Below are positions 1-20,497 of a DNA stretch of 20,614 nucleotides, in pieces. The stretch's first letter is position 1. Each line of letters opens with the position of its first letter. The position numbers were made by a program, and so were the translations under genes. Below the pieces are notes generated by a model. That model saw only the letters and a program-made list of their open reading frames with translations, did no database searches and had not been told where the DNA came from. Location: the UHGV virus genome UHGV-0225178; one strand, given 5' to 3'. The DNA is from a virus.

Positions 1-78
1 TCGGCTTCGGCTTCGGCTTCGGCTTCGGCTTCGGCTTCGGCTTCGGCTTCGGCTTCGGCTTCGGCTTCGGCTTCGGCT
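1..78. repeat. Perfect hexanucleotide tandem repeat (TCGGCT/CGGCTT) x13, truncated by the window edge
   Basis: Directly visible: 78 nt with exact 6-nt periodicity and no stop codon in any of the six frames; ends at position 78 where unique sequence begins. Confidence 0.95.
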
Positions 79-356
79 AAATCTGCACCGGTCGCTGCAT
101 GAACCACACCCGCCACGGCTCCCGCATCATCACCAGTCGTCTGTAGTATTCGTACAGTGAGGCATGGCTCCGCTTCCAGTCGGGCAAGCTGCTCCGGGGT
201 GACGTCAACCTGCTGGCGTCCCCGCATGAACAGGAACCCCGCACGACGAAACTGCGTACGACTGCAACGCACTTCTGCCAGTACCGTGACAGGACTGTCA
301 CCACTGACCTGAAGGCCTGAATCATCTGTTGCTGCCACAGTGTGATGTTCATTCAT
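1..356 (-). CDS. Partial CDS (3' end outside window): hypothetical protein immediately downstream of the major head gene, whose in-window C-terminal part is an (Ala-Glu)n repeat
   Basis: ATG at 356..354 preceded by GGAGG with a 6-nt spacer; my hand translation gives MNEHHTVAATDDSGLQVSGDSPVTVLAEVRCSRTQFRRAGFLFMRGRQQVDVTPEQLARLEAEP...GADLAEAEAE..., open to position 1. Composition is more protein-like than the overlapping 77..352 frame in the ORF track. Confidence 0.4.
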   Translation of the reverse strand, partial: MNEHHTVAATDDSGLQVSGDSPVTVLAEVRCSRTQFRRAGFLFMRGRQQVDVTPEQLARLEAEPCLTVRILQTTGDDAGAVAGVVHAATGADLAEAEAEAEAEAEAEAEAEAEAEAEA

Positions 357-399
357 ATTTGCCCTCCGCAGGGGCCGGGCCGTAAGCCCGGCTCTCCGT

Positions 400-1347
400 T
401 TACAGATAATCCGCGACAACCAGCTCCAGCTTGCCCTTCATCTCGTTAGAGACGGTGGTGTTACCGTCCGCGAACAGCTCGCGCTCCAGCAGCTGCACCG
501 CCTGTTTTTCCAGCGAGGTGGGGACAACAATATGGGTGGGTTTGATGCCGAGTTTGCGGCCACCGTCAGCCTTAAAGTCACGCATGGCTGACCAGCCGTG
601 CCACAGCGCATCCAGCGTCAGCGGTGACTGCATCATGTAGGCCATCTGCCAGAAGCCGTAGCCCACATTGCGACGGGCGGAAGCACCGAACACAAACTCG
701 TTATCAGTAAACGCACGGCCTTCATCGACTTTTGTCTGGGCAACCAGTTCGGCCTTACGGCGATCCTGATAAATCAGCGGTTTTACCGCGCGGGAGCAGT
801 CGAGCAGATACCAGGCCGGGCCGCTGTAATCCGCCTGTGCACCGACAGAGCCGTTTTTTGCCACAAACATATTGCTGACCATCTGTGCATCCCCGGAGCC
901 ATCCACTTTGGGGTAAACCGGGTGTTCGGTATCAAAGAAGTTCTGGCCGTCATAGCAGGCCGCACTGATCCCGTCACGCAGTGCAGCAAAGACCAGTTCA
1001 TCCGGTTGTGCCGCCGCAGCGCGCCCCATCTCCTGGAACAACGGGGAGTAGATGCCAAGATTGTCGTCTTCGAAGTCATCGCGGCTAATGGCGACGGTGC
1101 CTTCGAAGGTTTTGTTCACGATGGCGTAGCCATAGGCTTTCATCTTCTCGATGACGCGGGAGCCGATCCACTCACGGAACTGCGGGAACTGCCCAAGCCA
1201 GCCGTAGGTGTTGGATTTCGACGTGGACGGTACGGTCATCGCAATTTTCTGGTACTGAGACGGAGCCATGGACATCCCGGCCTGAAAATCAGAACGGTAG
1301 CCCGTCATCAGAGCGGTGATCATCGCCGGTGTAATCGGGGTAGGCAT
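400..1347 (-). CDS. T: Major head (capsid) subunit, Mu gpT-like
   Basis: 315-aa ORF immediately downstream of the protease/scaffold gene, with TAATG stop-start overlap at 1347; size and position match Mu T. Family assignment is from synteny and recollection, not a search. Confidence 0.75.
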   Translation of the reverse strand: MPTPITPAMITALMTGYRSDFQAGMSMAPSQYQKIAMTVPSTSKSNTYGWLGQFPQFREWIGSRVIEKMKAYGYAIVNKTFEGTVAISRDDFEDDNLGIYSPLFQEMGRAAAAQPDELVFAALRDGISAACYDGQNFFDTEHPVYPKVDGSGDAQMVSNMFVAKNGSVGAQADYSGPAWYLLDCSRAVKPLIYQDRRKAELVAQTKVDEGRAFTDNEFVFGASARRNVGYGFWQMAYMMQSPLTLDALWHGWSAMRDFKADGGRKLGIKPTHIVVPTSLEKQAVQLLERELFADGNTTVSNEMKGKLELVVADYL

Positions 1348-2471
1348 TATTGCATTTCCTCTTTCATTTTCAGGAACTCGGCTTCGGTTTTACCCAGCAG
1401 ATGGGCGGCGGCGATATCTTCAGCCGACAGCACAGCGGTGGCGGTCTTTTTATCCGGCACGGTCACGGTGTCGGTCTGAAGAGTGGTCAGAGCCGCAACC
1501 GGCTGGCGGGCGTCAAGCTGTGCAGAAAGTGCCGCAACACCAATCTGTTGTCCGAGTCCTTCCATGTATCCGCGTTCGCTTTTGAAAATGCGTCCTTCGG
1601 ACTCGGCCTTATCCAGCAACTGCTCCAGCGTGGTGCTGCCATGCTGTGCCGACAGCGCGACATATTCGGTACGCAGGGCGTTATACGTTTCAACGGGCAC
1701 ATATTTCGTCAGATCAATAGTGCCGCCAGTTGGTGTGCCTTTTGCGGTTTCCAGCTCTGCCGACAGGCTGGCAACCTGCGTTTTCAGGGTGTCGTGCGCA
1801 TCCGCACGGGTTTTGATCCCGGTAAGGGCAGACAGCGCCGCCGTGCCCAGTTCCGGCGTAAATTCGTCACCGTCAGCCACGGTCAGACCGAGCGCCGTCA
1901 GCAACTGGCGTAATTGCTCATTCATGGAGGTGTCCTTTAAAGGAGGGTTTAAGGCGTTATAAAGGTCATCCGCCGACAGTGCGGCGACAGGATTCATGCC
2001 AGTCAGACCGGGGTCACCGGTAATAGCCAGCATCCGAAGCTCAACAGGTTCACCGGTGATTTCGTCATAACCAATCACCGGGGAAAACCAGGGAAATTCG
2101 TTATTGCGCAGGTGTTCAATGGCCGGAGGGTTCCACTTCGGACGCACTTCAAAACCCCGCTCTTCACTGAAGCGGAAGTTTTCCGGTGAGGCCATGACAA
2201 AACCGGCAGCCGGTGCCTGATGTCCCTTAATCAGGGTCTGGTGGTTGTAGTCAATTTTTACCGGCTGATTGAGCGCCACAACCCGGGATACCATGCGCTC
2301 AACGGTCGCACGGTTAATCAGCCAGCCTTCAGCCGGTTTTTCCGGGCGACCGTCACGGGCCTTTACCCGACCGGCTGGCATGATCTGACACCAGTCACCG
2401 TCCCCGTCTGCGGACAGGCTGATGGCATTCAGAATGGCATAAGCAAGTTTGGGCGTGTTTTTCGTCTTCAT
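1347..2471 (-). CDS. I: Head protease / scaffold protein, Mu gpI-like (scaffold Z probably from an internal start)
   Basis: 374-aa ORF; C-terminal half is Ala/Leu/Thr-rich and coiled-coil-like as expected for a scaffold; position between G and T as in Mu. Confidence 0.75.
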   Translation of the reverse strand: MKTKNTPKLAYAILNAISLSADGDGDWCQIMPAGRVKARDGRPEKPAEGWLINRATVERMVSRVVALNQPVKIDYNHQTLIKGHQAPAAGFVMASPENFRFSEERGFEVRPKWNPPAIEHLRNNEFPWFSPVIGYDEITGEPVELRMLAITGDPGLTGMNPVAALSADDLYNALNPPLKDTSMNEQLRQLLTALGLTVADGDEFTPELGTAALSALTGIKTRADAHDTLKTQVASLSAELETAKGTPTGGTIDLTKYVPVETYNALRTEYVALSAQHGSTTLEQLLDKAESEGRIFKSERGYMEGLGQQIGVAALSAQLDARQPVAALTTLQTDTVTVPDKKTATAVLSAEDIAAAHLLGKTEAEFLKMKEEMQ

Positions 2472-2648: not shown

Positions 2649-3122
2649 TTACGGCGTTTCTGTGGCCTTTTTAAAGCGTTTTCTGATTTCGTCCATGATC
2701 TCCTGTTCTGCCACCTGATCAAAGCCCATATACGGACGTGCGCCAATGGCCGCCGGTCCCGGTGGCATACCAGGCAGGCCACCCCACTGATGAATGGCTG
2801 CATAAGGTTCATTTGATCCAATCAGCGCCCAGGTATCGCCATAATCCGTGGTCAGGCGGCGGGCCAGATCGCCGTTCAGCGTCAGGATTTTGCCGGGCGT
2901 GTATCCCTTACGGGTACGCCACTCACGGTAAGGATCTGACCAGTCATGCCAGCGTTCACCATCCGGCTCTTTTTCCTGCTCAAACGCCATTTCTGACGAT
3001 GACAGAAGACTCGCCGCCACACTGCGGGCCAGGTCTTTTCCGCCGCCCACAAACTGAAGCCGGGCAAACACCCGCTGGAGACGCGCAACGTCCACCACCA
3101 CGGCCGCATCAATGGATGACAT
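2649..3122 (-). CDS. G: Virion morphogenesis protein, Mu gpG-like
   Basis: 157-aa ORF at the Mu G position (between F and I); GGAG 5 nt upstream of the ATG at 3122. Confidence 0.65.
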   Translation of the reverse strand: MSSIDAAVVVDVARLQRVFARLQFVGGGKDLARSVAASLLSSSEMAFEQEKEPDGERWHDWSDPYREWRTRKGYTPGKILTLNGDLARRLTTDYGDTWALIGSNEPYAAIHQWGGLPGMPPGPAAIGARPYMGFDQVAEQEIMDEIRKRFKKATETP

Positions 3123-3243
3123 ATTGTCTCCGCATAAAGGATGAATATAAAATAAACAGGCGGTCAGTGTACGCTTAACTGGTAAAGTCGGTGCCTGCCT
3201 CCGGGTGGATCATGTATGCGGGTTCGACCCCCGCCACTGACCG

Positions 3244-4575
3244 TTAATCAATTTGTCCTTCCAGCACCTCAAGCATTCCGCCCCGGATATCCGATTTCAG
3301 CTTCTCCATATTGATAACCCGGTAAGCATTCACAATCACATCCAGTTTATCGGGCTGACGTTTCAGACTGTACGGTGCATTAACGGCAATCTGCACACTG
3401 CCATCCTGATTTTCCACGATATACATCAGATTGTTGTGCCGTTTGTCCCACAGTACCGCTTTTGGCTTTGCCAGCATTGCCGGTAAGCGCCCGAAGTCCT
3501 CCGGCATCAGGGCGATGCCGTCATTCTGATGTTTCACACTGTCCGCATGGAGCACATTTTTACCGCTCATCGCCAGCAGGCGGGCCGGTGGCGTTCCCGT
3601 CCGGCTTTCCACCGCCTGAGCAATACTTTCGGTCATAAAGCCCAGCGTGCGGATATCGTTACCACCTCGCCGGGTTTTCATGATGTTTTTTGCCCAGATG
3701 CGGAACGCCAGCTGCCGCTCCGGGCTGTTATTCATCTCCTGCACCACCATTTCCCGTAACGCCGGGCTTTTCACCTCGATCAGTTTGCGGATCAGCGCCT
3801 GGTCTGTGCCGAACGCTGCCGAGCCGGGGTTATATGACCAGCCCACATCCGGTGTCATGGTTCTGGTGCCATCTGAATATGTGGTCACCGGCATTTCTCT
3901 GACTTCTCCGGTCTGTTTATCCACGCCAGCCTCAACATTGCGGGTGGAGAGATGATCCTGACCGGATGAAACGGATAACCCCATCGCATCCAGACGGGCC
4001 TGAGACAATGGCCGGACACGGCAGCGACAGTTCCAGCCATTAGGCGGGTAGTGAGTATTCCAGAACGGATCGTCATAGCGGAATACCAGCCCGTTAAGGG
4101 CGGAATGCGCCGGGCGGGTGCGGCTGTCCATGACCGCCACATACTGCCAGAACGGATGCGTGTCCGTGTTGTTCATCATCTGCGTGTAACGCCCGGCATT
4201 GTAAGCCACACGGGTGTTCACGTTGTAAATCAGCGCCAGACGACGGGGACTGCCCAGTTGCACTTCTTCCGCGTTACCGTCGCTGTCCACCACAATCTGC
4301 TTTCCCCACCATCCCAGCTTTTGCAGGCGTGGCGTCAGCGTGCGGATAAATTCTTTCTGTGAAATTCCCTCATCAATGGCCCGTTGCATTTCGGCATGTA
4401 GGGTGGTCACCACATCCAGCCGTGCTGTTTTTGCTGCCGTGAATGAGCGGGCGTGCACATCCGCGTCTGTTTCGAACCAGTTCCAGCTGATATGCGCCCC
4501 TTTGGCGCGGAAGTATGCCACCGCCTCTTTTGAGGGAAGCGTGGCGGCATAACCTAAATCAATCCCCTGAGCCAT
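3244..4575 (-). CDS. F: Head morphogenesis protein, Mu gpF-like
   Basis: 443-aa ORF directly downstream of and overlapping the portal gene, as in Mu (portal H then F). Confidence 0.7.
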   Translation of the reverse strand: MAQGIDLGYAATLPSKEAVAYFRAKGAHISWNWFETDADVHARSFTAAKTARLDVVTTLHAEMQRAIDEGISQKEFIRTLTPRLQKLGWWGKQIVVDSDGNAEEVQLGSPRRLALIYNVNTRVAYNAGRYTQMMNNTDTHPFWQYVAVMDSRTRPAHSALNGLVFRYDDPFWNTHYPPNGWNCRCRVRPLSQARLDAMGLSVSSGQDHLSTRNVEAGVDKQTGEVREMPVTTYSDGTRTMTPDVGWSYNPGSAAFGTDQALIRKLIEVKSPALREMVVQEMNNSPERQLAFRIWAKNIMKTRRGGNDIRTLGFMTESIAQAVESRTGTPPARLLAMSGKNVLHADSVKHQNDGIALMPEDFGRLPAMLAKPKAVLWDKRHNNLMYIVENQDGSVQIAVNAPYSLKRQPDKLDVIVNAYRVINMEKLKSDIRGGMLEVLEGQID

Positions 4576-20470: not shown

Positions 20471-20497
20471 TATATTCTGCGCCGCAGCAAACCCATC

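Follow-up and report, generated by a model that had tools for sequence, protein, structure and literature searches.

The hexanucleotide array that opens UHGV virus genome UHGV-0225178 is already known as the VNTR EHC-5, and it lies in a known gene family. In the reading we favor, to which we give a probability of about 0.9, it is a hypervariable, in-frame repeat in a gp35/HI1506-type gene, its units come and go by slippage, its length is nearly neutral, and the edge of our DNA inside it is an assembly break. We refer to the whole stretch of DNA analysed, 20,614 nt, as the window.

TRF found a single array in the window, thirteen perfect TCGGCT units at positions 1–78 (period 6, 13.0 copies, 100% matches, score 156). 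A probe of 18 nt, three units long, matched 11 times in the window and not once in 100 dinucleotide-preserving shuffles, bearing out the thirteen exact units that an earlier note on this DNA had described. Read on the minus strand, the array is a run of GCC GAA codons and gives (Ala-Glu)n. Translation confirmed that note's proposal of a coding repeat that shares its frame with the open reading frame from ATG 356–354, which stays open to the window start for 118 codons plus 2 nt and ends in ...GADL(AE)12A. The window start cuts the array, leaving 12 full GCCGAA units and 5 nt of a thirteenth; the wording ‘thirteen or more’ was thus apt, and the 119-aa partial protein was correct to within the cut codon. 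The well-formed ribosome-binding site and the major head gene just upstream, both part of the same description, were likewise present (Table 1). Between the two genes, the minus strand can form a hairpin, GCCGGGC ... GCCCGGC (dG −21.7 kcal/mol, z −1.96), with no U-run behind it; the Mu record carries a predicted terminator at the matching position.

Table 1. Features of the window, with positions, strand and the evidence for each.
Feature	Position	Strand	Evidence or remark
(GCCGAA)n array encoding (Ala-Glu)n	1..78	-	TRF, shuffle control, translation, unit count, EHC-5 primers in relatives
Truncated gp35/HI1506-related CDS, 3' end missing, 118 codons	1..356	-	Translation and closed relatives
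EHC-5 forward primer site (ATACTACAGACGTCTGCTGATGA)	127..149	-	2 mismatches in window allele
Folded N-terminal domain (beta hairpin, helix, strand), ~aa 23-73	138..290	-	Pfam, 2OUT, AlphaFold pLDDT 86-93
Shine-Dalgarno GGAGGG	362..367	-	5 nt before ATG 356, read from sequence
GC-rich hairpin	374..392	-	Fold; between major head gene stop (400-402) and gp35-type start
Mu gpT-type major head gene	400..1347	-	Context; ends 44 nt before ATG 356
tRNA-like element	3163-3242	+	Rfam tRNA 31 bits (gathering 29), E 4.6e-5, searching 3100-3270 only

Of 5426 complete E. coli genomes, 233 matched in a megablast of window positions 1–1400, and homologous genes are present in 228–233 of the 5426, about 4%. 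Nearest are strain CI5 (98.6%) and two mouse strains, M1 and M3 (98.1%), while the O157:H7 group is about 94.6% identical. RefSeq labels the genes in these matches as phage protease, Mu-like gpT major head subunit and ‘HI1506-related protein’, the last of which sits between gpT and a ‘gp436 family’ gene in closed E. coli genomes. The homology search of the partial protein suggested in the earlier note led to the Mu gp35/HI1506 family. Pfam FluMu_N (PF17891) matches at aa 36–72 (window 141–251) with an E value of 3.9e-9 and 36.5 bits, above the gathering score of 25.8 bits; Mu gp35 itself matches the same model at 40.8 bits. The partial protein also matches phrog_3622 and PDB 2OUT, the NMR structure of Haemophilus FluMu gp35/HI1506 (E 2e-4). 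In tblastn against phage genomes, the matches in Mu, D108, SfMu and Yersinia Mu-like phages were all to gene 35 (46.5% over 43 residues, E 2e-3 to 5e-3).

Gene position agrees with these matches. The genes for Mu gp35 and FluMu HI1506 follow the major head gene directly and precede the gp36 adaptor gene, as here: a gpT-type gene lies upstream in the window, and a gp36-type gene lies downstream in closed relatives and in locus L045, where the neighbor matches Pfam Phage_Mu_Gp36. Both known proteins also resemble the window protein in having a FluMu_N domain followed by a flexible segment. By sequence similarity, then, the gene is a Mu gp35/HI1506-type (FluMu_N) gene of an Sp18-like Mu-like prophage of E. 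coli and Shigella. In the Mu record, gene 35 has the major capsid gene on one side and the gp36 adaptor gene on the other and is labelled ‘head-to-tail connector complex protein’, and a 2025 cryo-EM study of Mu, in which gp35 was not resolved, lists it as probably structural and perhaps connector-related and describes a capsid without cement proteins (PMC11915804). Gene position and the Mu literature together suggest that the encoded protein is probably an accessory protein of the head or neck. For a capsid decoration protein of the JBD30 gp39 or T4 Soc type, neither fold similarity nor presence on the capsid was found. Bacillus subtilis YqbF (PDB 2HJQ), from the skin-element prophage, gave a weak score at 13% identity and has no sequence similarity to the window protein. 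Pattern scans of genome contigs with the full protein and with the N-domain gave no confirmed locus, all 600 candidates being unrelated; the species breadth of the family given here is drawn from the protein database and IMG/VR.

Closed genomes show what follows the array. The frame continues into a basic tail of 18–21 residues, GQDAPRKKTGNKAKQ(AKK)ARA, with the overall pattern (G/V)QDA(P/A)RKKTGNKA(K/E)Q(AKK/KKK)ARA, and the tail's TGA overlaps the ATG of the next gene, the gp36-type adaptor (‘gp436 family’), by 4 nt (ATGA). In 9 of 9 closed relatives examined there is no stop or frame change beyond the point corresponding to the window edge, so the array stays coding there, the alternative outcome being one that the earlier note had named as fatal to its proposal.

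This ending sets the window lineage apart from the rest of its family. A profile search gathered a wider family of Mu-type proteins from E. coli as well as Salmonella, Edwardsiella and others, in which a short linker joins the FluMu_N domain to a C-domain of about 55 residues (DLNxRIRA...GEPKVKAVSAALGE.VS.AQIKAAL). Members from Mu, Salmonella and Edwardsiella have this helical C-domain, whereas the window lineage has (AE)n and a basic tail of about 20 residues in its place; a helical C-terminal domain after the linker was absent from all E. coli Sp18-type alleles. The nearest relatives that carry the C-domain are P0080 and P0094, with 61–64% identity in the N-domain. Aligned as DNA, these two and the E. 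coli lineage are homologous up to ...GATTTA and again from the gp36 ATG, and the segment between shows no detectable DNA homology, which indicates that the Sp18-type lineage replaced the C-domain by (AE)n plus basic tail. When the proteins were aligned with MAFFT, the basic tail looked like a remnant of the C-domain; with no DNA homology in the segment, this idea stays speculative and we set it aside. In HI1506, the segment in the place of the AE tract is reportedly a flexible linker. AlphaFold gives the AE tract a pLDDT of about 40, against more than 90 for the N-domain.

The earlier note had anticipated that the tract could change in length without a frameshift and that related prophages might carry the same repeat, and both expectations were met in closed E. 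coli genomes and in IMG/VR prophage contigs. Direct counts in nine closed genomes gave 2, 10, 11, 13, 13, 13, 14, 15 and 20 perfect GCCGAA units, every allele in frame and retaining the conserved tail and the 4-nt overlap with the next gene. Three cattle strains, 140, 119 and 118, carry 13, 14 and 15 units respectively; their 5.45-Mb chromosomes hold the locus at one shared coordinate with identical flanking proteins, and from size, coordinates and flanking proteins they are apparently clonal. Across 60 evenly sampled closed-genome matches to a 1001-nt query spanning the gene, the matching spans ran from 938 to 1046 nt, which converts to 1–20 units with nearly every value represented; the conversion used two tail lengths and was verified on 7 directly counted loci. 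IMG/VR prophage contigs carry alleles of 1–16 units, and every complete one is in frame. Some alleles are interrupted (AEVE, AETE, GAGAG, KAEA), and the residues of the AE tract are therefore not strictly conserved.

We propose that perfect GCCGAA units are gained and lost by slipped-strand mispairing during replication, a mechanism to which the pattern of alleles points. Because the unit is two codons, slippage never shifts the frame, and the tail is kept, as is the ATGA in which its stop overlaps the start of the gp36-type gene; translational coupling to the adaptor gene would thereby always be preserved. An on/off phase-variable contingency locus is ruled out by the same property, the unit being 6 nt, a multiple of 3, and all nine directly counted alleles and all complete IMG/VR alleles being in frame. 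Behind the FluMu_N domain, the AE tract stands in for the short linker and the helical C-domain of about 55 residues found in other members. Most probably it serves as a disordered acidic spacer that tolerates changes in length. All lengths from 1 to 20 units are common, no value is preferred and interruptions are tolerated, a distribution that suggests nearly neutral variation in length; the point against neutrality is that arrays remain perfect and long in many lineages.

That last observation bears on the strongest competing explanation, in which the AE tract is a functional, length-tuned acidic spacer and changes in unit number adaptively set the reach of the basic tail from FluMu_N, the tail itself possibly binding DNA or the portal. 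In a variant of this explanation, what varies is an exposed epitope or a host-defense target, making the locus a contingency locus by length and not by on/off switching. Arrays kept perfect at up to 20 units in several lineages would fit such tuning, as would a family made of two modules joined by a linker and the listing of Mu gp35 as probably structural or connector-related. The basic tail and reading frame, conserved in all alleles, could be counted in its favor too, but the 6-nt unit alone explains the conservation of frame. Against tuning, alleles of 1–2 units are common and sit within otherwise intact-looking late operons, unit numbers fill the range from 1 to 15 almost evenly, without a favored length, and interrupting substitutions alter residues freely. 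The tract is moreover predicted with very low confidence by AlphaFold, and gp35 was not resolved in cryo-EM of the Mu virion (PMC11915804). We regard this explanation, its variant included, as unlikely. Still less probable, in our judgment, is the more specific claim that selection acts on the tract as an acidic tether that can be adjusted rapidly, within an accessory protein of the head or neck of Mu-like phages. Were that so, its length would tune the contact of the basic tail with packaged DNA or the portal, or would aid escape from host defense, and the VNTR would act, within a phage structural module, as a contingency locus of the length type.

The array already serves public-health laboratories as a typing marker. 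EHC-5 belongs, according to its description in PMC10062581, to the Japanese EHEC O157/O26/O111 MLVA scheme of Izumiya et al. 2010 (Microbiol Immunol 54:569), and in that 2023 paper on EHEC O157 MLVA it is missing from most clades and has 2–10 repeats elsewhere (PMC10062581, Table 2). Absence from most clades combined with variable repeats is the pattern expected of a VNTR in a variably present prophage. Using the primer sequences from S5 Table of PMC10062581, we found that both primers match O157 loci L004–L007 with 0 mismatches and bracket exactly the GCCGAA array, giving an in-silico amplicon of 115 + 6n bp; over the directly counted alleles, n is 2–20. With a perfect primer fit on either side of the array in O157, the repeat is identified as the known VNTR. 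Taken singly, the forward primer has 0 mismatches in O157 loci L002 and L004–L008. The reverse primer (CCGCTTTGTTACCGGTCTTTTTC), whose site falls outside the window, has 0–1 mismatches in O157-type relatives and 4 in CI5/M3. The window prophage is of the CI5/M3-like subtype (98% identity), whereas the O157 subtype that carries EHC-5 is about 94% identical, and with 4 mismatches at the CI5/M3 reverse site the window's subtype may not amplify, or may type as null. On sequence homology the window locus is nonetheless the same locus as EHC-5, primer mismatches notwithstanding.

Like the coding PulseNet loci O157-3, -9, -17, -19, -25 and -37, EHC-5 is a short perfect array that slips fast enough to separate outbreak clones. 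The PulseNet O157 typing loci likewise have 6-bp units. Unlike them, EHC-5 is inside a transposable Mu-like prophage, which makes it a presence/absence marker as well, and it occupies different chromosomal sites in different strains. The EHC-5 literature that we examined presents the locus only as a marker and does not discuss the encoded protein tract. Full-text literature searches by hexamer (ten of the twelve rotations), by HI1506 and by Sp18 returned nothing useful on the array.

The abrupt start of the window inside the array has many counterparts. Numerous database proteins of the family are marked ‘partial’ and end in the AE tract (P0001, P0010 and P0040 among them). Two partial proteins that we looked up trace to contigs of five Logan sequencing runs and of three NCBI draft assemblies; every one of these contigs ends within the array, 12–32 nt into it, and two IMG/VR contigs stop after 12 and 14 units. 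Draft contigs from at least 8 independent samples thus end inside the array. The window edge is most probably a short-read contig break of the same kind: the recurrent contig ends suggest that short-read assemblers cannot bridge long alleles, which would explain why the window starts where it does. As a contig break, it makes 13 units only a lower bound for the source strain.

An assembly or construct artefact, with the repeat absent from the real genome, was the caveat that the earlier note had attached to its own observation. The window does begin within the array, and many draft contigs do end in it. However, more than 220 closed chromosomes hold a perfect in-frame array with unique sequence on either side, and the array is routinely amplified as EHC-5. 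The repeat is genuine, since closed genomes contain it, and an artefactual origin is hardly credible; the part of the caveat that stands concerns the edge, which is most probably a contig break of the usual kind.

Equally hard to sustain is a non-coding or regulatory repeat with a fortuitous or pseudogenic frame from 356, for which a second ATG at 352, in a frame stopping just before the array, could be cited, when a strong Shine-Dalgarno sequence precedes the 356 frame, its product matches FluMu_N above the gathering score, homologs occupy the matching gene position in Mu, D108, SfMu, Edwardsiella and Salmonella, and all alleles read through the array to the conserved tail and the coupled stop/start. 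We rejected the ATG-352 frame itself: it stops at TAG 79–77, would turn the array into (Pro-Lys)n, and has no homolog support except for two database entries that start with it (P0076, P0085). A few rare database variants (P0069, P0020, P0035, P0076, P0085) are frameshifted in or beside the array or were called from the ATG-352 frame; one of them yields (Pro-Lys)n and then regains the normal tail, and other tails run into the next gene. Known from one contig each, these variants may be sequencing errors or pseudogenes.

At its other end, the window leaves the prophage. Prophage homology ends at about position 20475, and the last ~139 nt, to 20614, are core E. coli DNA matched in 5417 of 5426 genomes; the window is the left half of a Mu-like prophage with its left end at ~20475. 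The simplest reading is that the window represents a contig running from the host junction to a repeat that could not be bridged. Elsewhere the same prophage end adjoins other host genes (xdhA, paaA, sgrR, citD, elyC), as Mu-type transposition predicts. In CI5 (NZ_CP011018.1) the best match of the window's late region lies at 4.86 Mb and that of its early region at 4.30 Mb; CI5 thus apparently carries at least two Mu-like prophages, with the window prophage a mosaic relative to them.

Two further features of the late region deserve mention. The tRNA-like element is antisense to the late genes, between a gpF-type gene (3244–4575, minus strand) and a gpG-type gene (2649–3122, minus strand), and PGAP annotates a ‘tRNA-OTHER’ at the matching place in CI5, CV261 and M3. 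A whole-window Rfam scan at gathering thresholds and ARAGORN reported no RNA gene and missed this element. Between the gpG-type gene and the protease (gpI-type) gene is an intergenic gap of 177 nt (2472–2648); in Mu, the corresponding region carries the central strong gyrase site.

By itself the array raises no new question. Its practical meaning is that of an epidemiological marker that repeatedly breaks short-read assemblies of E. coli and Shigella with a Mu-like prophage, and annotators should be prepared to meet gp35-type proteins marked ‘partial’ where contigs end. What is modestly new, and descriptive only, is that this marker encodes a variable (Ala-Glu)n tract replacing the C-domain of a gp35-type protein and that it systematically truncates draft assemblies. 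For the Mu gp35 family this offers a small clue: the C-terminal half can give way to an acidic tract that is low in complexity and very variable in length.
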